DNA of 60,103 nucleotides, the filler included, from Dugesia japonica (taxonomy: Eukaryota): assembly GCA_001938525.1 (NCBI GenBank). It is 5 parts of 5 records of this genome, joined end to end, with 100 filler letters (N's around TTAATTAATTAA, not from the genome) between each part and the next. Parts side by side here need not be neighbours in the genome. Positions count along the whole stretch, not along the records: positions 30,355 to 39,346 come from MQRL01636596.1; 4 more parts are not named here. One strand, written 5' to 3'. Made by a program: the position numbers and the translations under genes. Positions 13,711-60,103 of the stretch are shown in pieces. Every line of letters starts with the position of its first letter. The first letter of the stretch is position 1. The notes beneath the pieces are model-generated. The model worked only from the letters and a program-made list of their open reading frames with translations. It searched no databases and was not told the DNA's origin.

Positions 13711-13810
13711 NNNNNNNNNNNNNNNNNNNNNNNNNNNNNNNNNNNNNNNNNNNNTTAATTAATTAANNNNNNNNNNNNNNNNNNNNNNNNNNNNNNNNNN
13801 NNNNNNNNNN
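13711..13810. other. Artificial contig-joining linker
   Basis: 44 N + TTAATTAATTAA (stops in six frames) + 44 N. Confidence 0.9.
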
Positions 13811-16501: not shown

Positions 16502-17016
16502 ATGTAGTTAAAAATCCAAGTTAGACTATTAAGCAGGTTAAACCATGTTTATTGCATATAACATAAAAGAACAATAAATTAATTTCATATCTATTTCCAA
16601 TATTTTCGTAGTATTCAAAATCAACAAAATCAACTTTCAAAAATTAAACTTAAAACAAACCACATTCTCTCATACATACTTTTTATTTTTATTGAAAAAC
16701 AAATTATAAAATCAATATTTTAAACAAGCATTAATAAAAATTTAAAGAATTATCAAATTGCAAATGCAAAATATTTTCTCAGTAAAATGAAATATTCATC
16801 ATTAATAATTTCAAATTTGAAAACAAGAAAACGATTTTAATTCGATAATTGATTAATCGATTATATTATTAAGCATAAATTAATTCATGGCATTTAATAT
16901 ATAATATTGATGAAAATTATTTCAGTTACAATTTCAACACATTTACTTTAAATTTTTCCATTAAATTTTTAATTGAATATAATATAATTCCAACAATAAT
17001 AGATTTTAATACTTAC

Positions 17017-17484
17017 TTGAAAGCGATCTAAAGCAATTGCAGTAATGCTAATAGTGCTTACAAAGATGTTTGTACCCTGCAATAAGGCACTCAATTTACA
17101 CATTGGGTCCCCCAACACCCATTCTTGTTGACCAGATAATAATCGTATTAAATTAAATGGCTCGGTAAGTATACATAAAATCAAATCAGAGATGGCTAAA
17201 TTGACAATAAAAATATTTCTTGGACTTCTCATACTGCGACCGTGTACAACAGCGTATATAACAAGAGTACTGCCACAAGCTCCAAAAACCATTAAAGTTA
17301 CATAGATTGCGATCAAAATCCACAATACAGTACTACTTAAACTAAGTTGAGATTGCACTCGCATCTCTTCGAAAACAGCATCAAAACCAACACGGTTAGT
17401 TATATAAGCTGGATTACATCGGTGAAAATAAGATTGAAGATCTTTATAACTGTCGATAGGAATTGTACCACAGTCGTTTGTCAT
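17017..17484 (-). CDS. Neuropeptide Y/NPF-like rhodopsin-class GPCR, coding exon 1 (N-terminus, TM1-TM3)
   Basis: MRSPRNIFIVNLAISDLILC (TM2), WVLGDPMCK (ECL1/TM3), VSTISITAIALDRF (DRY-like). ATG at 17484; GT donor caa|gtaagt after 17017. Downstream exons were not found in this block. Confidence 0.88.
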
Positions 17485-18329
17485 GACTCCATTAAATATT
17501 TTCAAAAGTTGAAATTCAATAATAAAACAGACAATATTTCTGATTAATTTATGATTCGTTAACCAATCAAATTTAAATAATCGTTATTTAATATTAATGA
17601 GTAAACAAATTTATAACAAAGTTTAAGCTTATCATTTTTATTTTATCAAATTAAAACTGGTATCATTAATTTGTAATGGAAATATACGAAAGTTTTGAGA
17701 AATTTTAATTTCGAAACCTGAAATTTCTACTGATTTTTTGGAATTAAATTATTATTTTTTTGATTTTAATTAAATTAAATAAATGTTATCTTACATTTAA
17801 AAATGTTTTTATTACTTTTATTTTGACTTTTTTAATGCGTATGTTTGACTGACATAAGCACTGAATAAATTGTAAAATAAAAAAAAAGTACACTGAAAAA
17901 TCCAAATCCAGTGGGAAAATGGATAAATAAACATCAAACACAAATCTAGAAAGCAAGAATCAGGAAGAGAAATTAAAAATCAAAGAAACACAGGAATCAA
18001 ATATAACTAAAGAAAAAATAATTATGTTAGACAGTTTAATTGAATAAATAATAAAAGTAATCATAATACAATTTTAAATAAATCATATAATTTCCTTTAA
18101 TTTCTTGTTAGACATCCGAATGTTTCATAATTCTTTAAAATCAGCACCTAATAAAAATACAGCTGATTTTAAATTTTAATAATCATTGCTTTTAAGTTAT
18201 GTATTACATCATTCGGTTTGGTTTTAGTAAATAGATTTTGGTTTTAGCGTGATACCTTAATGTGTGAATCAAATTTTAATAATGGTTTTACTGCCGACCT
18301 CGCCGAAAATATTAATGTCATAACTTGCA

Positions 18330-29299: not shown

Positions 29300-30254
29300 T
29301 TTATGAGCTCATTATATAAATATAAATGTTTTTTATTCCTGATACCAAATTTTTATCGATTATGTAATTTTCACCTCATTTCACAACCATTCGTTATCTT
29401 TCCATCAAACTTTGAAGATTTTTCAGCAAGTTCCGATTTCATAGCATCTATGTTCGAGAATGATTTTTCAGGAAAAAAGCGAACAATGATCGAAAGAAAT
29501 AATAGTCAGATGGCGCACAATCAAATGAACATGGAGAATGGGGCATGAACACACATCTCATGTAGTGTAAGTTTCAAAAAGTCTTCTGTACTGCATGTGA
29601 ATTGGCGTTTTCTTGGTAAAATATCATCTTTTCGTTTATGACTAACAGCTACCAAAAGATTTAATTGTCAGCAGTAAAGGTCTCCATTAATGGTCTTACC
29701 CATCTAAATGAATAGTCGCCTTTAGTCTCATCATATCTACACAAAAGTCTTCGTCGGATGCAACCCTGGTTTGAAAGTATGTATTGGTACTTGGCCTGGA
29801 TATAACTATTAAATTTTTCTTTAAGACATTTTATACAACACTCATCCTCAATCACTATGAACTTCAAAAGGCTCAATAACGTGGCAAAGAAGTAAAAAAA
29901 TTGAAAATAGAAATTAGGATTTCTCTCTGAATTGGTGTTAATTCATTTGGCAGCTAAACAATGGTTTTCCAGACTTCACCAATCAGATGGATATGTTTTT
30001 GAACAGATGACTAACTAACTTTAAGAGTGATTTCTATTAATTCAATAATCAACTTCGAATCTTCTTCAACCAACTTTTGTAGACCATCATAGTAGTGGAA
30101 TAGTAGCACATCAAAACAAAGATCCCCGCCAAGGTTAATTGTTCTGAAATTTTAACGTCGAATGTCTAAGGTATGTTTAGGTATCTTCCATGAAAACCAT
30201 TAATTGGTCAATGTAATTTTTTTATTGAGTAACTTTTATTATGCTGTGTAATGT
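29300..30254 (-). mobile_element. mariner (DD34D) transposase remnant
   Basis: MPHSPCSFDCAPSDYYFFRSL (YSPDLAPSDY motif) at about 29490-29546; LLKFIVIEDE (IVTGDE motif). Truncated by a linker. Confidence 0.8.
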
Positions 30255-30354
30255 NNNNNNNNNNNNNNNNNNNNNNNNNNNNNNNNNNNNNNNNNNNNTT
30301 AATTAATTAANNNNNNNNNNNNNNNNNNNNNNNNNNNNNNNNNNNNNNNNNNNN
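30255..30354. other. Artificial contig-joining linker
   Basis: 44 N + TTAATTAATTAA + 44 N. Confidence 0.9.
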
Positions 30355-33300
30355 ACCTGTAGTACTTTCTAACAAATCTTTTAACACTCTTTTTACCTTC
30401 GCTGTAAGGTCTGTTTGATTACAATTCTGTGATGACACTGATTTAATGAATGCTGACTATCCACCTTGTTGATGGATCTATGGTTCAATCGTTCTCTGTA
30501 TAATTCCTGTCATCCGGAGCTGTCCTCCGTCTGGGAATTTTGCTGGTTTGTCCTTTGACAATGTGTATATAGCCTGGTGAAGTAGAAACGCTATGGTTAC
30601 TAGTGCTCTGTCTTTTGTAATTCCATAACGCAATAACTCGCATGCTACGCTTTCATCTTCTACTCTCGGTTTAATAGCACATCTCCATTTTGTCGATGGT
30701 ATTTTTATTAAAATCGGTNNNNNNNNNNNNNNNNNNNNNNNNNNNNNNNNNNNNNNNNNNNNNNNNNNNNNNNNNNNNNNNNNNNNNNNNNNNNNNNNNN
30801 NNNNNNNNNNNNNNNNNNNNNNNNNNNNNNNNNNNNNNNNNNNNNNNNNNNNNNNNNNNNNNNNNNNNNNNNNNNNNNNNNNNNNNNNNNNNNNNNNNNN
30901 NNNNNNNNNNNNNNNNNNNNNNNNNNNTCTGTCGGTTTAATTTGTATTCCGTTTTGATCATAACTGGGTTCGACACGTGGTCTGCCTCGTTTTCTGCGCT
31001 CTATCGATGTTTCTGCATCGCGTAATTCTCTTACTTCAAAATTATTTTCAAATGCTCTGCTGGGATTAATGACGTCTGTTGTATTCATTGGTTCTTGGCG
31101 TAAGAAATCAAACATGGGGTCGTCTTCTGTAATTATCTCGGTCGTTACAATTTCTTCAGCATCTAAATCTACATCATTTATATCTCTGTATGTTGGAGTT
31201 TTTTGTCTGGTTACTTCAGTTCTGCTTACTTTTGATTCTGGTTGCTCTACTTCTATGATTTCGATATCATCGTTTTCACTTGAGAGTCTGGATCTCCATG
31301 CTGTATGATCAAATATAGTTTCCTCTGGTTGGATACTTTCATAATTATCCTCTAAAAGTGCTGAATCTCCTCTACCAGTTGTATGGGTACTTGTTCTTTC
31401 CGGTGGATCAAAATTAGCTAACAATCGTTTAAATGATCGTATGGATTCGCCAGTACTTTGTTTTTCCGTTGACTTGATTTGAGTTTTAATATTTTCTGCT
31501 TCTGGTTTATTTCGTGAAGTGGCATATTTCTCTTTACGCTCGCTGCTCCTGGTTCTTATCGATGATTGAATTGGTTTGTCTTTTGCTCGAGTGCTACCTC
31601 TGCCGGTACTTGGTTGATCCTTTCTTGCGTTCTTACTTGGTTGATCTTTTCTTGTACTTGTACTTGGTTGATCATCTATTTCTATTATTTCCGGATCTTC
31701 ATCTTTTTTCTTTAACCAATGTTTTGGTGGTATAGGACGTACTGTAATTGCGTTTGGTCGTTTTGAGTTGAGTACTTGCATACCGATAATTTCATCATTT
31801 TGTATTGATCTACCTCGTAATTGGAAAAAATATGGTTCAACCCATGGTAATCTCTGCTTTATTTTCCCCATTCCTTTGTATGCCAATACTTCTATCTTTG
31901 AAGTTGCGCCAACAGGATCTGTTATTTTAAGTTCAAACTTTCTTGGAGGATCTTCTTCCATTTCCATTCTACGCCATTTCTTTATTAAATTTTCCAAATT
32001 TTCATGGAACCAATAATTTCCTTCTTTAAATATGTGGTTTCCTGAATCTCTTCACCATATGTTGATACTAAATCGTTGATTGCTTTTCGCAATGTCTCTC
32101 GTTTATGTGCTTTAATTTTATTGAATCGGTCAATGATTTTTCAGATATTTTTATCCTTCAAACTGTTAAAATGGTATAAAAGTGTTAACACGCTTCGAGC
32201 TAGCTTTTGATCCTGTGGCTGGTCCGATTCTGTTGTTTCATCTATTTCCTGTTGTGGGACTAACGTTTTCCCGTTAAGAGCTTCCATTACTCTATCACAA
32301 CTATCCTTTACTGATTTTAAAATGGCTGTTACTGTTCTTGGTGTAAAATATCGATCGGCTGTTTTCCTGCTTTCCATGTCTCCTCTTCTCCATACATAAA
32401 TGATACTAGTGCCTGGCCATATTCCCATATCAACTAAATTTTGATCCTCTACATATAAATCAAGTAAGTTCTCATTACTTACCGCTTCTACATCGTCTAA
32501 AGAGGTTAGTATTCCTTTAATTTCTTCCGAGTCTATATTGTATGTTTCAGCAGATTTTATTTGTAATTTTTGTTTACTAGTTCTTGATTCATCTTCGTCG
32601 CTTGATCCTTCTTCTAGATTATTTCTAATGTCATTCGTTGACTTTGTTGCTTGAGTTGTGCTTTGCAGCATGTTTATTGTTGCCATTGTAGTTGATATTT
32701 TTGGTTTAATTTCTGTTTCGAAGATATTTCATATATCGTCATTTATTTCTGATACGCTACGAATGCAAAATCGTTTCCACACCTCCGCTGGTATGTCGGG
32801 AAATTCATCGAGATGTATTAACCTGAGCCTTGTTTCTCCTCCAGGTCTTATTCCTGCATTACACAAATGTTTATTGCTGCAATCAATGTACACTAGATTC
32901 TAATTATTTCGAATAATGTATTCATCCAGTGGTTTGTTTAATGGTAATTTTCTTAATTCTCGTTTTAGACTACCTACTAAAACGGAGTCAAGCTGGATTC
33001 GTTGGCTTTCTTTTGCATATTTTTCCGTGATTCTGAATCCGCTGGGCCTGGTTATTGTAAATATTTTATGTCTGTAATCTTTTACTGAGGCTGCCCAATT
33101 TGATTTAACTGGTAATGCTAATGCATAGTGTCGGCATAATTACTCAATATTAAATAATAACTTCTTGTAAGTTTCTGTTGTTATCAAATTTCTCCATTGT
33201 TTGGCTTTTTCCTGTGCCAATGTAGCATTCATTATTTCTGGGGAATAATCTACAAATTTTCCTGCTTGTTTTGCGATTAGCATTTCTCTTTTATCCACTA

Positions 33301-33810
33301 CAGCTTCCATTTCTCTAACATCTTTTATCGGAATTTCATCTGGAATTATCACTCCTGGCCTAATATTAGGTTTGGCTACTTCTATAACTCTTTTTAAGAG
33401 TTCTTCCTTTAATTCTTTGCCCAGCTCCTGGGCTTTTTGCGTTTCCTCAATTACTATTTTTTGTATAAACCTCCACTATAAAGAGATCTTCTAAATGTTG
33501 TAGTATTTGCGTAATACTTCTGGATTCGTAGAAAGCCTGTAGTAGATTTCGCGATGAGTGGATTTTATCCCACTGAACCATTTTTATCGTGGTTATCTCC
33601 CCTGGTCTGATACCAAAGGTCGTAATATGAGCATTATCGTCATTCAGATTGATGACCGTTTGCCTTGTAATAGATGCATAATTTTGCAATGGCTTCAAGT
33701 GTTGGATTTTCTCTACCTTATTAGAGCTACCTTTTAAAGCTTGGTTTAATTCTTGATCTTGAAATAATTCGGATTCGGATTTACTTAAAGATCGGATAAT
33801 TCGTTTATTT
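30355..33810 (-). pseudogene. Degenerate, apparently intronless multidomain polyprotein (GIxPG repeats, low-complexity linker, AT-hook, Bcl-2-like domain); probable retroelement ORF
   Basis: ORFs 33447-33698, 33140-33352, 32141-32686 and 30708-31997 join through isolated stops and frameshifts into about 1100 codons. BH1/BH2-like motifs at 30442-30651. Confidence 0.7.
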
Positions 33811-34454
33811 GGTTGAGAATCCAGTGTAAAATCGATTTACAATCTATTAGATTCTGTTGTTGATGAATTTGTTATTTGTCGGTGAATTTGTGTTTTTGTT
33901 GTTTGAAAAATTTATTGATTTTAATGTCTATGAGTATTATTTTAGGGACACTAGCATTTTACCCCATTAAATATATAAATGAATAATCAATTAATACTTG
34001 CTTACCCGCTTCAGCCATTCTAATCGATCTTAATACTTCTTTTCTGTCATCATTTTTCATCAAATATTTTACGAGTTATTCAATTTCAACGGTTAAAATG
34101 ATTATTTTTGCCGTATTTAACTAGTTTTATTTCGATATATAATTAATATGCGTTCTTTTATAAATAATATAAGATACTATACTCGTCNNNNNNNNNNNNN
34201 NNNNNNTCATCCCGATGGATTGGAGAACGACACACTCGAACAAGGTGGAACAAGTCTATACCCGCCAGAAGGTAGTACACCTTGCCAAGCCAGTCGCTCC
34301 CAATCTTCCTTTCGAGACACTGAACCCTTCTGCCGATGATTGGACACTACGAAAGTCTCCAAGACCAGTCCACCAGGAGATCCTGCCCGACCTTGATCGC
34401 AATTTTCCGTGACATAGTCGCTTTCGCAGCTCCGTGAGCTCATAATTACCACAT

Positions 34455-35113
34455 GTGGTTTGCTGACCACACAAAATATAACAGTGGTTTGCTGACCACT
34501 AAAAAGGCCCAAAATGAGGATGGTTTGCTGACTACCTAGAATAATATAATGGGTACAATATCCGAAAAACAGTGATTTGCTGATCACTAATAATAGAATG
34601 GGTGGTTTGCCGACCACTAATAATTGAATTGGTGATTTGTTGATCACCAAGAATAATGGGGCCAAAATAATATAGTTATCATAATCATTTTCATAACTTA
34701 CTTCCTATTTTAACCATATTTTTTGTATTTTTTCTCTTTCTGCGCGCACTTTCATCTTTGCTTTAACACCTACCATCTACCTAATTCTGGTCACAGTTAT
34801 TAATAGCTCTTTCAACTGCTTTGATTGTGAGTTGATCAGACTCATCTCCACAGCCTTCCGAACCAAGGCTTTATTTCCTATGATCAAAACTAATGTGCGT
34901 TAAATGAAAAAGTTACCATTTCTTAAATCCACGCATGGTTTTTAGTCTGGGATCAATGCATCAGTCGGAGCTAACTTTATTTTATCCTAGTCTTATATTT
35001 TATTTTCATTTTTATCATATTTGATTTATCATCATTTTAATATCATGGGTACTATGCCCGAAAAACCGTGATTTACTGATCGCTAATAATAGAATGAGTG
35101 GTTTGCTGACCAC
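34455..35113 (+). repeat. Array of eight 16-bp palindromic units, consensus GTGRTTTGCTGAYCAC, with variable spacers
   Basis: Copies start at 34455, 34484, 34520, 34572, 34602, 34632, 35068 and 35098. Confidence 0.9.
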
Positions 35114-37499
35114 TAGAATAATAACAGTGGTAATCATGGCTCATAAATAACGATATATGTTCATTTCTATTTCTTCATATATTTGGTCGTATTTACTTTA
35201 TTTTCCTAATTACTGCTCCGACTCAACAATTTCATTCTTATTCCTATTTATCATTTATAATTCTTACTATCTATTTCTACATTGATCCCCATAAAGTNAT
35301 TGTAGCATTATTACTATCGTGAGTGAGTTTATTATTCGATTCATTTTTATTCAGAATTGCTATTTTTATTTTGAACATAATTTTACTTTTTTTTCATTTT
35401 ATCATATAATTTATTATTTTATTAATTCATATTTTATTACATACTCAATCAATAATCGTTGGATTGGAATGCTGGAATTTCTATCGTAGAATAAATGTAA
35501 AATTTCCTGAATATCAATTTATCAACATTAATAATTATTAAATTATAAATCCGAATTATCTTTGGTTATATATCTCGTAAATTAGTTTGAACAGTTTCAT
35601 TCAATATATCTTTTAAAACCATTACACCTTATTTATTTATGTTGTTTTAAATTGTACTTCAAAAGAAGCTCAAAAGTTATACATTTCGCACTCTAATTAG
35701 AGCTCTAGTTATTTTTGTACTTCTCAAAAGAAGCTCATTTAGTTAACCCTTAATNNNATCGTTCAGTTCAATTTTCTAGTTTATTTCGTCAATCCTAAAA
35801 TCCAGTTTTGTTAATTGTAAATCGCTTACAATTTTATCGTTTCTTGTAAAGTTTTGTTTAATTTTATTTATTATTCTCCAATTTCTTTTTTGATTATCAC
35901 CATCCAGTTTTCCATTTATTGTTGTTCGTTTTCTTATTTTGTTTCTTAGTTGATCACCAGTNNNNNNNNNNNNNNNNNNNNNNNNNNNNNNNNNNNNNNN
36001 NNNNNNNNNNNNNNNNNNNNNNNNNNNNNNNNNNNNNNNNNNNNNNNNNNNNNNNNNNNNNNNNNNNNNNNNNNNNNNNNNNNNNNNNNNNNNNNNNNNN
36101 NNNNNNNNNNNNNNNNNNNNNNNNNNNNNNNNNNNNNNNNNNNNNNNNNNNNNNNNNNNNNNNNNNNNNNNNNNNNNNNNNNNNNNNNNNNNNNNNNNNN
36201 NNNNNNNNNNNNNNNNTATTAATTCGTTTTAATATTTTAATATTCGTTTTATTTCCTCCGATTTTTTACGATTTAATATTTATTCGTTAATTATTTAAAT
36301 TATTAATTCGATTAATAATTTAATTTATATTTTAATTTTCTTCATTTCACAATCGCAATATTAATTCGTTTAATATCAAATATACCAAATCGTTTAATGT
36401 ATAAATTTATATTAATTCATTTAATATCTGAAATTTTCCTTTTGTTTTAATTTACCCAAATTACATTTTTATTTTTTAATGGTTTTAATATTAATTCGTT
36501 TAATATAATGAGAGTAGGTAAATGTGAGCGGATGACCGCACATCCCCCCACTGATCGATATATTGATTTTCGATATTGATTGATTTTTTTTGTTTTTTTG
36601 TTTAGAGTGCTGGGGAAGTGGAGGGAGGTGTGACATGCGCTCACATCAACCGCTTTTTGTAAATGCTCTTTTACACGGGAATTTCAAATTTTTTTGGTGG
36701 GAAATTTAAATTATTTTTTTCATGTTAGGATTATGGATTTTAATGGGTCTTTGAAAAATAAATATAAATTCATAAGTAAATATAATCTAAAAGGTTTCTA
36801 AGGGTTACAATTACTAGTTATCGCGTTTTTGTTGAAAAGAGTATTGCGAGGTTTTGTGGGATTTGGATGAAAGACGGTTTGAATGAACGAGAGTGAGTAG
36901 GGGTAGGTGATGGTGTCTGGTTTCGTTATTTTTTAGGTGATGATGTGTGTGTAAGTATATATTGAAAAACGATAAAACACATCCTTTAAGATTTTTGGGG
37001 TTCGATGGTAGATTTAATTTGGCCCTCAAAATTGGTCTATAGGTTGCTAAATGTAACTATGGACCAAAACGCACTTGAGGGTTGCAGTTATGGGTTAAAA
37101 TTAACTGTTAGTTACAGTGATAATTTTTCACATTTTTGTTAAAAACAGGGTAGTTATGTGAGTTTTAGTTGGATTTGGATGAATTTTGGTTTGAATGAAA
37201 GAGGGTGAGTTGGAATATGTGATGGTTTTGGTATTTGTTTACGTGATGGTGGTGGTGTGTGTTTAAGTATATATTGAAAAAAATGAAATTCGCAATATGT
37301 AGCTTTTGTTGCAAAAATGAATTTCAAATATATTTTTAGTGGTTTTATGAGATTAAAAATGATTAAACATGTGATTTGGGATTGTTTTGTGTTTCTCATG
37401 TGTTGCATTAATTAATATTTTAAATATTTCTTTATTTACTACTTATAAAATGAAAACTATTACAATACTAAACATTTATTGTTACAACATTTTAATTTT

Positions 37500-38750
37500 T
37501 CTTCTTTGTCTTCAGCTTTTTTTGTATTCCATAATTGTAAATCCATTATTTTTTTTAAGGTTTTCTACCGATTTCCCGTACAAGTTGTTGTTAACTAGTT
37601 TGTAATAATTTTTTTTCAAGTTCTGTATTACATTCTGCTCTTAATGTAGTGTTTGTTTCAATGTAATTTTCAAATACATGACCTTGAGTAAACCTTACCG
37701 CTCTATGGATCTCAGTCACCTTTACTCCCAAACTTATATATATATATATTTGTAGCAGTTTCCAGTGCAATACATGATTAGTTTTAGCGTAATTTGTTAA
37801 AATTAACTTTTAATTTTACTGCTTGGAGCGCTTTGCTGTTCTGCTGCTACTGGTATACCATTAAGATAATCATGAATTTCTAGTTGGATTATCATGTCTA
37901 CCTCCATGGTATACTCATCTGTTAATTTATCAAGATACAAACTTTTAAAATCTTTTAATACTTATTCTAAACCAGTATTTACCCACTCAAAGTCTTTAAA
38001 TTGTAATTTTTGGCTAAGAACCCATCCATACAGATTGTTAATATCAATATATTGTTATATCTGTGTTTTGACTGGTGGTGACACGATGTTTGTTAGCAAA
38101 TGTTAATCCACCCCTTATTCCACCTTCGAAAAAGGAATACATATCGTTGTCAATCAACAGTTCTATCGGTTCCTTCAATGACATCAAGGCTGATGCCAGC
38201 TCAAACCCGATATGCCAAAGAAATTTAATGGATCCAATTTATTGTGTGATATTAATTTTAATCTGAACTGTTGGAAAAGATCCACCAATAAATACACGTC
38301 CAGCTTCAAGTAAACAATCAAATAGTCCAGAAGGGTCTTACAATCTGTTATTCTCCACATTTCCAGTGCTTTTTCATACTCTTCATCTGTGATTTCATTC
38401 AATTTCAGTAGTGTGAGACATGACTGTTGTTTTTTTTTGTTGTTTCAACCCGAACTTGCAAACTGGTTGCATAATTATATGGAAATATCCCCTTTGACGT
38501 TGTTATTCTTCTATATAAACAAACAAATCGCCGTTTTAAAGTGTTGGTATTGTTTTTGCATCAACCTATTAATAATACTAACCAGAAATGCTTTTTTAAT
38601 AGTCACATTTTCGTATGTATTGACCGGCAGTCAGAAAGGGTTGCCGAGACTTGATTATATCTTTTATTGTTATTTAACCTTTGTTTTAGTGGTTCGCAAT
38701 GTATTTTCGGTTGAAAAGCACAAGTTTAGAAATAACAGCCTAATATAAAA
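37500..38750 (-). mobile_element. Polinton/Maverick protein-primed family-B DNA polymerase remnant
   Basis: KGIFPYNY; DYLIVYLKLDVYLLVDLFQQFR..LDP; FEGGIRGG; YIDINNLYGW; GYTMEVD; YYKLVNNNLYGKSVEN. Confidence 0.88.
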
Positions 38751-39346: not shown

Positions 39347-39446
39347 NNNNNNNNNNNNNNNNNNNNNNNNNNNNNNNNNNNNNNNNNNNNTTAATTAATT
39401 AANNNNNNNNNNNNNNNNNNNNNNNNNNNNNNNNNNNNNNNNNNNN
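39347..39446. other. Artificial contig-joining linker
   Basis: 44 N + TTAATTAATTAA + 44 N. Confidence 0.9.
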
Positions 39447-47756: not shown

Positions 47757-47856
47757 NNNNNNNNNNNNNNNNNNNNNNNNNNNNNNNNNNNNNNNNNNNN
47801 TTAATTAATTAANNNNNNNNNNNNNNNNNNNNNNNNNNNNNNNNNNNNNNNNNNNN
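47757..47856. other. Artificial contig-joining linker
   Basis: 44 N + TTAATTAATTAA + 44 N. Confidence 0.9.
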
Positions 47857-49835: not shown

Positions 49836-52800
49836 TTATTGATCATCGGAACCTGAAAATGAAATTGAAATAAAAATTTGAATTAATGACTGTAAGCGCA
49901 GTTGATTTTTCAAAATAACTTTATTTAAAAAAAACGAGTAGTGTAACGACATCAAAATAGAAATAGAAAAGTGTCATCTTTAAGACATGTAGCCGCACAA
50001 CAAAAACACTCCATCAATACTTCAATCTAACCTGACGACATGCATCCTGTAGACAATTGCTCAGAAAGAGACGTTAAGTCATCGAATGGTTGGGAAACTC
50101 TAACTAAAGTGCTACCAGTTGTTGTAGTCAATGTGGTTGAATCTGTAGAATGACAACTCATTTGCATTATTGATGAACTCATTGAAGTAGTTCGGGATGA
50201 AGACGTCAACAAATCAATAGCAAGCCCAGCAGCAGAGTCTGAATCAATTTGTTGTAAAGACTCAGCTCTTTGAGATGTGTATATCACAGAACATTGTTGA
50301 CTAGAGCCATTACTAGTCATAGAATGCGTTTCGCTAAAATCCAGTAATTCATCAATAATTGCAGTTTCTTTCACTGGACTAATATCATCTATACTTGGAG
50401 ATTTAGTCATAAATGTGAATTGAGACTTTTCTTCAATTAAATCATCCTCTAATCGTTCAAATTCTTTCAATGAAGATGATGAATTAGAATCATCAAAATG
50501 ACAAAACCTTTGCTTTTTGCGACATTTCTCAATTTGATCCGAATCCAATTTTAAATCAGATAAAATTTCAGGAGATTTATCAAAAGATTCTGTACACTCT
50601 ATTATAGGTGATAAAGGTACAAGATCTAAATCGTCTCCATTGGTGGTTAAAATCAAACCAACATTTGGGTCTTCCGCTTGAAGTGACAATGATAAAGAAG
50701 GCGGTTCTTTACCGATCCGATTCCCAATATCATTATAATTTAAAAAATAATCACAGTCATCAATTAATGGAGAATCGGGTTCTAAAACTGGACTAAGATC
50801 ATCATCAAATGTGTCATTATTAGATTTATTTTGCTGAATAATACAATTAACAGAATCGGTAATAATTTTCTCCACTAATTCTTCAGCAATAATAAGAATA
50901 ATTTCAGTATTTTTGGCAGATTCAATAATTGATTCAACGATATTATCAGATTTAACAACAATATTTGCAAATTTAATAACGCCATCAATTAATTCAGAGA
51001 CTAACACATCAATATTTGATTCATCAGAAAGATTATATGATTTAATGTCATTATTGACTGTAGATGTCTCAATATTATCTTGTATATGATTTATTTTCTT
51101 ATAATTATGACCTTCTTCAGACTGATCAGGCGATTCTACTGTTTCCAAATCACAACTCAACGCTGCTGGCATACATGAATTGTGTCTACTATTATCTAAA
51201 AGTGGTAAGATTCCAGGGATTTTTGTAGGAAAATCTGTAAGCATTTCTTCTTTTAAACACTCAATTTGATGAGAATAATCCTCTTCTAATTCTTGATCAC
51301 TGTCATTTGGAAGTGAAGTATGGTCACTGCCCAGAGGTTTATACAAATTATCACAAGTAGGATTAGACGGTGAATCTAATTTTTCATGCGGCCATTGTTC
51401 ATTTAATAACAAAGTTTTAAAAGAAGTGACTTGTTCATCAACGTGTTGTCGTTTGCTAGAAAGCAAGTCGTCAGGATCGATCTTTAAAGCTGAGGAGGTT
51501 ACAGAGAAACAACACGGATTTTGATTAAAAGATTCTGAAAAAGCTGTCAATAAAAATACCTTACTCAAAAATCATCGTAAAAAGATAATACAATAACAAG
51601 TTAAATCAATTTTAATAAAATAAACGAACTAAAATATTGAATATTATAAATGAAAAACATATTATAGCTAAATATTAAGCAGCGCTAAGCAAAGAAGCAA
51701 TAATCCTATAACAACCTAATTTACTAAAATTGAAAATTTCCCCATTTTCTATATCATCTTTGTCTTCGAAATTAAAATCACATTCCGATGATGATTCAGA
51801 AGAAAATACTAAATTATCAGAAGATTGGAATCTGTAAACATTTAATTGACCTTTGATTAAAAAATTATCAGCCACAATTTTTTCCGTTTGAATGAATTCT
51901 ATATTTTCTCTTTTTAATGACAAATGCTTTTCTGATATTGTTGGTGCGTTACATGTATGGTCAAATATCGTCTTGATATTTAATTGACAATAATTAGTTA
52001 AATTTTTAGGTTTTTGAGTCAATTTATAAATAGATTCTTCCATTGAAATGCGTGCACAAAGATGAGACTTTTGATTTTCGTTGTCATCACTATGTAGGCA
52101 ATTATTATGGGAAAATGCACTATTAACTTCTAAATCAATGACATTTGATCTTAATTTATTTGAAATTATGTCATATTTATTTCGACGATTAATAATTGTA
52201 ACAGGTGTCGTGCTTTGAAATTCAGGACTACTAGGGTGCTTGTAAACAGGTATATTGACTTTAGAATTAAAACTGAAATGGGAGTCACTATCACTGAGGC
52301 AATTAAAATCATCATCGGTATCGGAAGCATGTGCTTTGATTTTAAATTCAGTGAAGCTTGGCGATAAATTACTCACGTGAGAACTCGATATTTTCGTATC
52401 ACACGTTCCTAACATTTTAAATAAAATAAATGTAAATTTATACATAAAGATGCCTCAAAAATAATAAATAACTGTTCAAATTTCAATTTTTTTTTATCAG
52501 AATATTAAAAATCGCAAAATACAATAAGTTTCAAAAACTGAACTTTTTATCAGAAAAAATTAAGAAAGATCACAATAAAAAAATAATGATAACAACATAC
52601 AATTTACAAAAAAGCGAAGGAAGTAAAGAAAATTTACATTTTATAAACGTAGAATTTCTGTTTTTTAAAAATTAATTTTGTTTTACACAGTAAAAATAAA
52701 AATATAAAAGAAATAATTTTTAAATTTAAAGTAATTCAAATTTTATAAAGGATTTGCGGAAAGAATGTTTCATAAACCAAACATTCTTTAAATCACAAAG

Positions 52801-55800: not shown

Positions 55801-58800
55801 GAAAGAGTCCACGATCTATTCAACAGTCCTTTAATAATTTTGCACTTGTAACGAGATTCACAAAAACTGAAAGGAGATGTATACAAACCTGTATCGGTTG
55901 GTTTGTGATAAACCTCTGTTTCATCATGTTTGGATTTTCTTTCTATTAATATGTCAAGGATAGAAAATTTTTATTAAAAAAAATTGCCGTTTTCTTCGAT
56001 TATTTAATGAATGGTTATTACGTAATAAAACATGTAGATAATACAAAAATTGTATATTACCAGATAAATCTCCTTTTTTAGCTCTCCACAAGATCAATAA
56101 GGCATATGCTGCATCTTGGTCGGTAGAATTATTTCTGATATTTTCTAAATCATCAGGATTAGTAATTCCTAGAACAATTGCAAGTTTTTCCCAATCTCCT
56201 CCAATTTGTTCGGCGATTGAATGTAAATCAAATTCAGATTTAGCAATTTTATCGGTGCAAATACCTAAAGAAAAATACGTCATAAATAACACGAAACTCA
56301 AGATTACATATTTAAATTTTGTAATACACAATAAATTCTAACATTACACAAAATTAGTTACTATTTTTGATCTAAACATTTTCTTGAGTGCCTCATTGAT
56401 ATCGATTTTTAAAGCGTATTAAAAAGAACTATTCAACGTGACAAGAAATTAAATAACAAACAAACTAAATGTTTGTATCATAAATATTATAAAAATAGTT
56501 AGCAACATATTCCTTTTGTAGCATTTATTTTAATTTTTGAGAGTTTATAATATAAACTGTATTTTAAAAAAAAATAGAATTTTTCGTTTAATTGAAATTA
56601 ATCAATATCCAAGATAAAATATGTATAAATTACTTGGTTTAATAAATTCTCCTGTTTTAATTTTCTTTCTTCGAAGAGTATCTGATACTGGATAAATTTC
56701 ATTTGGCAAACAAATCTCAAGCGTTGTAATTGGCTTTTGAACTGCAGTGGTACCAAGTACATTTCTAAAGTGAAGAATTATTAATTTTTTATAGCTTAAA
56801 GATTAATACTAAAATATTTTTCAATGAGAACAAATCTAATGTAATCAAACTAAAAATTATAATTTAATGATGTCAAGAAATGTAATGTTTTTCTTATTCT
56901 AACATGAATTGAAAATTATTTGTAACTTAGTCACATCTCTTCAATATTTGAAATTTTACAAATTTAACACCACTGAAATTATGAATTATAAAACTGTAAA
57001 TGGAAGTAAATAAAAGAGATTATCGGAAAACATTAAATATATTTTAATTTAGATCAAATTCTAAGTATTTTTCGAAATGTATAAATTTGTCAATTTTATG
57101 AAAAAATGTCATTATTATCTATAACAAGGGTAGTCGACATTTTTAAACCTACAACTCACCTTAGTAATATTTTTAGTGGTAAAATTTTAAAAAAGAATCT
57201 TAATTTTAGAACGACCGAAAAGCATTCTTAATTTTAGGATGGATGTTTGTGAAAATATACGGTAAATCTCATCATTATACTATTTATACATTCATGTTTA
57301 TTTTTTAACACAATGTATAAAGTAAAATTGATTTGATTCATTTCTACATGTAAATAACTTCTGAAATAATAATTCCACCGTTCAATAAAGAAACTTGAAT
57401 CGTTCTGATCTATAGTCTAGTTTTCACAGGAATAATAATGCCCAAATTCCACAGAGTACTCGTTTTTACTCAAATTTTTCAAACAATGTAGACATTTATA
57501 ATATAATTGTTTCTCAAAAACAAAAATCGTTGGGTACATAAGTTTTTAAAAATATTTACCCAGAACCCAATCCTTGATTTCTTTGATGAAGGAGAATTGC
57601 CAATTTTCCTTTGGGTTCTTGTTGAGTATCTTTAACACGAACCAAGAAGCTGATTCTATTTTCATTTAATGCTTCAACAGTCATACTTAATTGATCGCCA
57701 GTTTTAGTAACAGGCACAAGATTACCAGCTGTTTCGATCCAATGAGGACGATTGTGTAAAACCTAAAATGAAAATTTATTGCACTGATATAAAAATTAAT
57801 TGAATTTTAATAATGATAATTATTTCTAGAGAAATTGTCAGATTTAACCATTATTCTCATTTTTAATTTTTTTGACAGTATATTTTTATGGCTTTATAAA
57901 AATACACATATCCCCCGATTTGCATGGTATTTTATTTACACGATTTCTCTTTTACACGGCTTTTAAAAAAAATTAAATTTAGTCATTTTTTAGTCTACTC
58001 CAAATTTCATTTTTTTTTGTTTTCTTATTTGGAATTTTTAAAATTTCATATTCACTGGTGATAAACAATTATTGGGTAATCATTTTCTACAAAATGACCC
58101 CAATATGGAACAAGTTAGTCTATTTCAGCGAGATATTAATAAATACTTAATTCAATATGATGAGGTCTAAAAAGATATGACCAAAAACCAAACACAATTG
58201 TTAATTACGGATTTCATTACCAAGTATCGCAGATCTGAGATTGTTTCTAATTCATCGAACATCGAACTTAAATCGCGTCAAGTACTATCGAGTGATAAAA
58301 GTGACACCATGCCAAATAGGAAGAAAAGAATTATAGCCTACGAAAGTGATAACAGTAATTAAATTTTCAGTTAAATTTTTGGAATTTATACTTTTTGTTT
58401 CTATATGTAAAATTAATTACATAAATATACCTTTATATTTTTGTTATTTTATGAATAGACATGTTATTTTTGCTTTATTTTACGTTGAAATAAATAACGG
58501 AATTATGCACATTTTAGTTGGTTTCCGATTTACGCGGTTTTACGAATAAAAATCTACGATTTCGATATGCATGATTTTCTAAGAAATCTGTCTTCAGTTT
58601 AAATTGGAGGATATGAGTATTACCATTTTATCTCTATAAAAATTAGTTCTTAATTTAATTTGAAAAAAGCTCCATGGATTTGCTTAATCTATTAAAATTA
58701 TAAAATTTCTAATCTAATTTTAACTGAAAATGTTTACAGTTCAAATATAAATTAGCAGTAATTAAAAATTATAACTTAATACTTGTTCTTAATCACATAG

Positions 58801-59750
58801 TAAATTTTATTTATAAATATAAAGTATATTTTAAAATTTTCATTCACAATTAACAAATTTAATTAAATTGGCTACAAATAGAAATATAATCAATTTATTC
58901 GTCATATATCTACCCAATAATAATTTCATTAACTCCAAAAATATAAAATTTCTCACTTCAACTAAAGGTCCACTAGCAATTAGTTGGAAATTTTCTTGGC
59001 ATTCCAATGTTTTATCGACAGAATCGTCAGTTAATCCAAGAATACGAAATTGTGCTTCCTCTTTATCATGTCTTCTTCCATAAACAACGAACTGACCCAT
59101 ATAAGGCACTACAGTAGACTCCCGATAAACATTTGTAGCCATTTCAGCAACTCCTTGAACATTTGGACAATCAATAAGCCACAATCTATGCATAATTATT
59201 ATTCAAATTTAACGGATAAAATAATTCTACCTTGCAGAAACGGTTGTAGTAAATGACACACAATCTTTATGGAATGATAATGGTGTTGATCCAGTAATGT
59301 CTTCCCAAACTGCAGGTGCACTTCCACCAGTGATGCTACAAAGTAATCTCAAACTAGGTGTACCACTACTATTGGGATCATTTATCATTCCTTTATTCGA
59401 CGTTTTTGGCAATGGGACTGTTAGAGTGATAGGTTTGTGAAATTTGCGTCTTCTGGGTTCAATACTAATAATAGGACTACATGCTACTCTATTTCCAAGT
59501 AATCTTGTAACGATTTCTGTTGGTATTTCATGAGCTTGAATGCCAACTCTTGTTTTCTTTAAAAGAGCTCCTTCGGGAAATACAGCCTGAACTTGAGGTA
59601 CAACAGAAGAACTCATAACAACACCTTCAGGACCAATTAAAGCGACTTCTTGTCTGATTCTAGTAATTAATGCAAAATATTGCGGCAAATCTGATGTTAA
59701 AATTCTTTGAATTCTATTTGCTCTGACTTCCTCATTAGTCATTAATTTTT
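49836..59750 (-). CDS. ank: Ankyrin (Ank2/unc-44-like), 3' part: ZU5, UPA, death domain and long C-terminal tail; the 5' ankyrin repeats lie beyond the window
   Basis: Phase-consistent GT-AG exons: 59231-59750, 58957-59185, 57560-57762, 56634-56764, 56061-56264, 54866-54997, 54700-54822 (or 54825), 54487-54654, 54300-54443, 54168-54248, then 52408 down to about 51715 (or stop 51675) and/or 51543-50032, and 49836-49852. Motifs [82 protein letters not shown]. Confidence 0.92.
50032..51543 (-). CDS. Large acidic Ser/Thr-rich exon, probably an ankyrin long-isoform tail
   Basis: About 500 codons open in roughly 70% AT DNA. Phase-1 acceptor ttattgacag, compatible with the upstream ankyrin exon. 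Donor tcag|gttag joins to GSDDQ* at 49836-49852. Confidence 0.7.
51675..52408 (-). CDS. Second large Ser/Asp-rich exon, probably an alternative or additional ankyrin tail exon
   Basis: About 245 open codons; phase-1 acceptor aaatgttag|ga. Confidence 0.6.
53464..53652. mobile_element. hAT (Buster/Charlie-type) MITE in an ankyrin intron
   Basis: CAGTGGT...ACCACTG termini; perfect 8-bp TSD ATTTAGTT. Confidence 0.85.
55200..55950 (-). mobile_element. Penelope-like element fragment (RT C-terminus plus GIY-YIG endonuclease)
   Basis: [23 protein letters not shown]; L.KNGY; YKYEC*G.NATYIG*AFRHL.IRIQEH; [13 protein letters not shown]. Confidence 0.85.
56061..56264 (-). CDS. ank: Ankyrin death-domain exon (first part)
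   Basis: [21 protein letters not shown]...ALLILW; continues in 54866-54997 ([17 protein letters not shown]). Confidence 0.9.
57905..58617 (+). mobile_element. Tigger/pogo-like non-autonomous element in an ankyrin intron
   Basis: TA|cacatatcccccgattt ... aaattggaggatatgag|TA TIRs. Internal QTQLLITDF (pogo/Tigger C-terminal QxxITDF motif). Confidence 0.7.
59231..59750 (-). CDS. ank: Ankyrin exon, ZU5-ZU5 spectrin-binding region
   Basis: [13 protein letters not shown]-type motif; ttttag acceptor and gtag donor. Confidence 0.95.
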
Positions 59751-60103
59751 CTAAAATTATTTTAGAAATGTTAAATTCAAAACTGAATTAAAATTAAATA
59801 AACAAGAATAGTCAAATAATGAATATTTCTCATGTTACCTTAATATTTATTTTAATTAAGAAAATTAGCTAGAATACACTTGTCATGTAAGAATATAAAA
59901 TAAAAACAAAATAGCCCAATAAATATGTGAAAAACAATAGTTGATTTTTAGTAAAATTAAATAATGCAATTTAAAATAAAATGTAATATATTTCAAAATT
60001 TTTAGTAATATCTAATATTCAGTATAATTGTTTAAATCTTCGTTTGAATAATATAGACCAAATAATCTCTAATTTTTCATTTGTCTGTTGATAACGGTTG
60101 ATA

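Follow-up and report, generated by a model that had tools for sequence, protein, structure and literature searches.

The stretch of Dugesia japonica DNA analysed here (the window; 60,103 nucleotides, filler included) probably contains a copy, decayed and cut short by gaps, of a Ty3/gypsy retrotransposon of Burro type (GAG-ENV-POL), with a polyprotein in which a diverged Bcl-2-like domain lies behind predicted ubiquitin-like modules. The window shows neither Gag nor Env nor Pol, so membership of the element in the Burro group is something that we infer. The window's copy is unable to make the whole domain because of two stops in it, and it is about 4% diverged from most copies; the others are open at both stops.

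The Bcl-2-like segment is a 364-base island between an assembly gap (209 N, 30719–30927), which separates it from the upstream frame, and an artificial scaffold linker (N44-12 base-N44, 30255–30354), where the sequence of the element ends. We take the island to be continuous with the upstream frame across the gap. Its minus-strand frame (30717–30355) reads as the first-pass annotation had quoted it, with two TAG codons at 30480–30478 and 30459–30457. The putative Bcl-2 core, running from BH1 to BH2 (30448–30654, minus strand; predicted helices 4–8), is broken by these two stops; it is suggested by profile, by hhalign and by a low-confidence helix pattern. Within it, a BH1-like motif (30586–30639, minus strand; profiles and other copies) has two codons unlike those of nearly all other copies, and a BH2-like motif (30448–30480, minus strand; translation, profile and other copies) holds both premature stops. 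After BH2 the translation is open until the contig end cuts it (30355–30447, minus strand): these 31 residues contain no membrane anchor (the best 19-residue hydropathy is 1.0 and the last windows are negative), the sequence ending at the linker, and neither BH3 nor BH4 is seen in the segment. The domain had initially been placed at the distal end of a polyprotein; since the frame has not closed when it reaches the scaffold linker that marks the contig end, this position is an effect of the assembly. Identical N44-12 base-N44 linkers occur four times in the window (13711–13810, 30255–30354, 39347–39446 and 47757–47856), and genomic adjacency of the sequences flanking each of them is not implied.

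Natural Bcl-2 segments were gathered with a short BH1 pattern (three viral and 28 metagenome loci), and all five reference loci that were checked belong to PF00452. The resulting Bcl-2 profile comprises 25 distinct segments from the 31 loci; six rows were dropped (L013 and L014, which are not Bcl-2-like, L015, which is without an in-frame match, and three duplicates). Because the reference set was picked by a BH1 pattern, its invariant BH1 columns are partly so by construction. Both TAG stops of the segment were read through as X (X80 and X87), and they fall on the two invariant BH2 columns of the profile; the first-pass annotation had placed them where the BH2 tryptophans belong. A Bcl-2-like spacing of BH1 and BH2 had also been proposed, and the second BH2 column lies 50 residues from the BH1 arginine (47–50 in 25 out of 25 references), so that the segment has both motifs in order and at the spacing of the family.

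The 25-segment profile gives the segment 5.7 bits (pairwise E 9e-4), which none of 2000 shuffles reached (best 4.7), and against a profile of the BH1–BH2 core it scores 6.8 bits, which one out of 5000 shuffles attains. hhalign aligns the segment to the Bcl-2 profile over 68 columns (P 0.0012, probability 19.5; identity about 22% to one reference segment in its output), and the segment ranks first among 36 natural stretches of the element's own frames. These scores understate the match, because both X residues are scored neutrally. When the window was scanned blindly, the segment came 6th among 2400 tiles with the 25-segment profile (E 3.8) and 3rd among 2400 tiles with the core profile (E 2.3), neither of which is significant; the higher-scoring tiles are unrelated and come from the region of a ZU5 exon. 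The proposed check against Pfam (PF00452) gave no family at E≤1 or E≤10 for the segment with X at both stops, a result that covers the broken copy only. A PDB sequence search gave no matches at E≤10, a protein database search gave 79 longer candidates and one of near length (none scored), and a search of representatives gave one match, a tandem-repeat translation and not a homologue. The single-sequence model of the segment (pLDDT 37.5) is too poor for use; its helices (22–30, 35–56, 71–77, 89–95 and 101–119) come in an order compatible with helices 4–8. The identity first proposed is thus upheld by the targeted profile, the spacing, the shuffles and the other copies (below), whereas its signal is weak, is not significant in the blind scan and finds nothing in the Pfam and PDB searches. 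On these comparisons of sequence, the segment is probably a real, diverged Bcl-2 core (BH1–BH2).

Parts of the stretch are present in 20 public runs from nine studies. With other copies aligned to the segment at 80% likeness, 1869 contigs of run X1 and 237 contigs of run X8 align on the 364 bases, the depth giving no copy number; RNA run X22 has 22 reads on the segment, none of them at least 95% alike, and run X21 has no reads there. High repetition extends over the whole of 30928–36000: three runs supply 14610, 7646 and 1375 contigs for it, and a fourth supplies 213 RNA reads from relatives. A multicopy mobile repeat, and not a single-copy spliced host gene, had been expected from the first reading, and the 1869 and 237 contigs on the segment together with the 14610 on the 5 kb upstream bear this out; a high-copy dispersed repeat is also a Burro-type trait (1869, 237, 14610 and 7646 contigs aligned).

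At the two stop-codon sites, another letter is found in 313138.8 out of 313138.8 and 225778.2 out of 225885.8 of the X1 depth, in all of the X8 depth, and in four out of four and seven out of seven X22 RNA reads. Both stops are private to the window's copy, because nearly all depth shows another letter there. Copies lacking tryptophan at these positions had been named in advance as evidence against the Bcl-2 reading, and no such evidence emerged: the stops are absent from the other copies in X1, X8 and X22. Eight places of the segment differ from the window in at least 99% of the X1 depth, and four of the eight lie, by hand reading, in codons of invariant BH1 or BH2 columns. At all four of these the other copies agree with the Bcl-2 profile (again by hand reading). 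This agreement, in which the BH1 columns are partly invariant by construction, is the strongest evidence that the sequences offer for a Bcl-2 identity. Two of the invariant BH1 columns are missed by the window's copy and matched in other copies; part of the BH1 divergence therefore is decay of the window's copy, because other copies match the profile there. The suggestion that the diverged BH1 is a feature shared with viral mimics is not supported, as other copies, read by hand, follow the Bcl-2 profile at these two invariant columns. The transcribed relatives are not all intact: six out of 11 X22 reads at one place have a one-base deletion.

Over about 5000 places of the element, the window's copy differs from most others at 215 (4.3%). 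An A+T content of about 73% and the domain order suggest a planarian host. Targeted hypermutation is not supported as the origin of both stops: the transition classes (50, 43, 28 and 22), like the mixed neighbouring bases at the 11 sites listed, are what ordinary decay would give. Some other copies lack a span of about 497 bases, between 34595 and 35093. No related loci were confirmed in viral contigs or metagenomes, and Rfam gave no matches between 29000 and 40000.

Upstream of the island (all on the minus strand), a broken intronless frame extends from about 34060, where there is a possible start, to the N gap. It consists of a decayed coding stretch with several frame segments, in-frame stops and apparent frame changes (31991–34060) and of an open frame with a low-complexity linker (30928–32051); the start region has three stops in 92 codons. 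A basic motif just before the gap (30975–30998, minus strand) is one that, by eye, we take to be AT-hook-like. Ahead of the frame start (33785–34060 on the minus strand, and upstream) lies about 2 kb of repeated non-coding DNA without a Gag motif. This highly repeated, apparently non-coding part (34061–36000, minus strand) contains short tandem repeats and may be a leader or LTR-like. Short repeats of 27–34 bases are found both in the leader (34455–35131) and in the linker (31606–31673). The upstream sequence is interrupted by N gaps at 34188–34206 and 35962–36216. The six frames of the window, in which the copy is decayed and carries N gaps, show neither a Gag knuckle nor a protease, RT or GPY/F motif.

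Three repeated modules are found in this frame, all on the minus strand. Module 1 (33564–33830) is a paralogue of module 2 (32807–33067; blastp E 9e-7, among four sequences), and module 3 (32378–32620) resembles module 1 over the C-terminal half of module 3 (blastp E 0.004); a possible fourth ubiquitin-like module, seen by eye only, lies at 31719–31946. Module 2 is predicted to be ubiquitin-like (beta-grasp): its model (pLDDT 49) has a strand–helix–strand order like that of ubiquitin, and in a fold search against 48161 chains about 30 of the 50 matches listed, judged in part by their titles, belong to ubiquitin-like or beta-grasp chains. The best match is to a PB1 domain (Z 4.0, rmsd 3.2, 63 aligned) and is weak, none of the matches reaching Z≥5. 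A ubiquitin profile was made from 72 distinct viral-contig segments (a segment was obtained from 103 out of 120 loci); with this profile, which is narrow, none of the four modules scored above shuffles. Pfam found no meaningful family in the upstream frames, PDB sequence searches with the modules gave chance-level matches only, and the Atlas gave no usable match for two upstream stretches. A regex chance test (none out of 200 simulated windows) was post hoc and carries little weight. The model of module 2 weakly suggests that the modules are ubiquitin-shaped; the sequence tests for ubiquitin likeness were negative.

Other features of the window were noted along the way. Decayed frames at about 37500–38750 (minus strand) have motifs that, by eye, resemble those of a Polinton/Maverick-type protein-primed DNA polymerase B. 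A decayed fragment at about 29400–29800 (minus strand) resembles, by eye, the C-terminus of a mariner/Tc1 transposase. A rhodopsin-family GPCR coding stretch lies at 16969–17583 (minus strand; Pfam 7tm_1, E 2e-21), and a 514-codon acidic, serine-rich open frame without a Pfam family lies at 50027–51571 (minus strand). A ZU5 domain exon (59227–59787, minus strand; Pfam E 1e-5) is followed downstream by an exon that is death-domain-like by eye (about 56100–56350, minus strand), and the two are likely to belong to a host ankyrin gene.

A similar cargo has been described before. In Burro-2, -3 and -4 a BCL2-like motif has been noted that follows a Ubi2/SUMO-like domain and precedes Env, the order in Burro elements being Ubi2/SUMO-like, BCL2, Env and protease (PMC6431247; this paper cites Grohme 2018 and Jurka 2007 for Burro / GYPSM1). 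The same paper suggests that Burro-type elements meddle with host apoptosis and describes a Dugesia tigrina element with accessory upstream frames. Novelty, which the first-pass annotation had wanted checked, can thus not be claimed for the Bcl-2 cargo, as the motif in Burro-2, -3 and -4 is already published (PMC6431247). Like the giant Burro / GYPSM1 elements of Schmidtea mediterranea and relatives, the element in the window has a BCL2-like motif in an intronless polyprotein, a predicted ubiquitin/SUMO-like domain upstream, a very high copy number and decayed copies. The two differ, in a comparison by published description only, in that there are three to four repeated modules here versus one. 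Unlike in Burro / GYPSM1, no Gag or CCHC knuckles are seen upstream here, and Env, protease and RT are not present in the window's sequence; whereas the Burro1 polyprotein is Gag-first, the frame here apparently starts near 34060, with non-coding DNA before it.

Other known systems are related to this element in part. According to the accessible part of PMC13465017, which credits Lee et al. 2026, Burro1 protects stem cells from apoptosis via a BIR/RING region. The element described here resembles Burro1 with this B-IAP module (as far as that part describes it) in being a planarian retrotransposon with an anti-apoptotic module, the function of ours being predicted; it differs in that the module of Burro1 is BIR/RING, not Bcl-2. 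Six GAG-ENV-POL elements of S. mediterranea, Smed_errantivirus_1-6, are described in the accessible part of PMC13524379; in the material at hand from that source, 'Bcl' is absent from the main text and a Bcl-2 domain goes without mention in seven supplements. Our element, as a putative Burro-type copy, would be like these Platyhelminthes GAG-ENV-POL errantiviruses, as there described, in being an Env-bearing planarian gypsy element, and Burro places BCL2 ahead of Env in such an order. With the Bcl-2 family itself (PF00452; PMC7022251, accessible part) the segment shares BH1 followed by BH2 at the same spacing and a hydrophobic helix after BH1, whereas its BH1 is partly diverged, no BH3, BH4 or anchor is seen, and it is embedded in a polyprotein. 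The accessible parts of PMC9210306, PMC13238120, PMC11410931 and PMC8532177 add nothing further on the domain. No functional test of the Burro Bcl-2-like domain was found in the literature searched (Grohme 2018 and Lee 2026 lie outside it).

In working copies, to judge from the published layout, the domain would be an internal part of the polyprotein, followed by Env and protease, and processing would likely release it or leave it membrane-tethered. As a pro-survival decoy it may bind the BH3 motifs of pro-death proteins of the host and so keep the expressing cell alive. We regard this role, for which the argument is by analogy with the Bcl-2 family (PMC7022251, accessible part), as evenly balanced between holding and failing. 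With the reported IAP module of Burro1 as the first anti-death arm, the Bcl-2 domain would then form a second.

The main rival to a BH3 decoy is a Bcl-2 fold with a role outside the BH3 groove, either as an innate-signalling decoy (compare some poxviral Bcl-2-fold proteins) or as a spacer ahead of Env, which we consider possible although it has clearly less than an even claim. Part of BH1 is off the family motif at positions without a listed difference in the DNA runs, no BH3 or BH4 is seen, and the accessible part of PMC7022251 describes viral Bcl-2 homologues that have lost BH motifs and ones whose roles are non-apoptotic and lie outside the groove; however, the other copies keep the tested invariant BH1 and BH2 columns, as is expected under selection on core and groove.

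A different architecture would follow if the element were a Gag-less, non-autonomous Burro derivative or an accessory frame, in which ubiquitin-like modules and Bcl-2 have their own start and are mobilised in trans. The absence of a Gag motif upstream, the roughly 2 kb of repeated non-coding DNA directly before the frame and the accessory upstream frames of the Dugesia tigrina element (PMC6431247) would all agree with it. Nevertheless we consider it unlikely: with three stops in 92 codons at the start and N gaps at 34188–34206 and 35962–36216, Gag may be deleted, hidden or unrecognised, and the sequence beyond the Bcl-2 part is missing. In the boldest version, a Gag-less, self-starting frame under selection in a high-copy planarian element would combine a Bcl-2 domain with an AT-hook and three to four ubiquitin-like modules. 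It would add a mitochondrial anti-death arm to the published IAP arm, so that the element, in the manner of large DNA viruses, blocks apoptosis at an upstream and at a downstream step; this we hold to be more doubtful still.

That the Bcl-2 likeness is a chance one, the segment being some helical part of a repeat protein, appears quite improbable. The low scores, the unrelated ZU5-region tiles that score above the segment and the empty library searches would be expected of a chance match, but both motifs are in register with the spacing of the family, shuffles were beaten, the other copies fit the profile at four out of four invariant columns at which they are unlike the window's copy, and the same cargo has been published for such elements (PMC6431247). 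Least credible of all is that a single-copy Bcl-2 gene of the host, lying beside the repeat, supplied the segment as an exon or as a processed pseudogene. The assembly gap between the segment and the upstream frame leaves room for this, but the segment matches the upstream stretch in its high repetition, and its divergence well exceeds that of the 25 reference Bcl-2 segments.

The reading we prefer therefore is a decayed Burro-type copy with a Bcl-2-like domain in its polyprotein. As a discovery it has little weight, since the cargo is published and the window's copy is broken. If the domain does block cell death, however, this would be a retrotransposon with two independent anti-apoptotic devices, which could shape stem-cell survival and regeneration.
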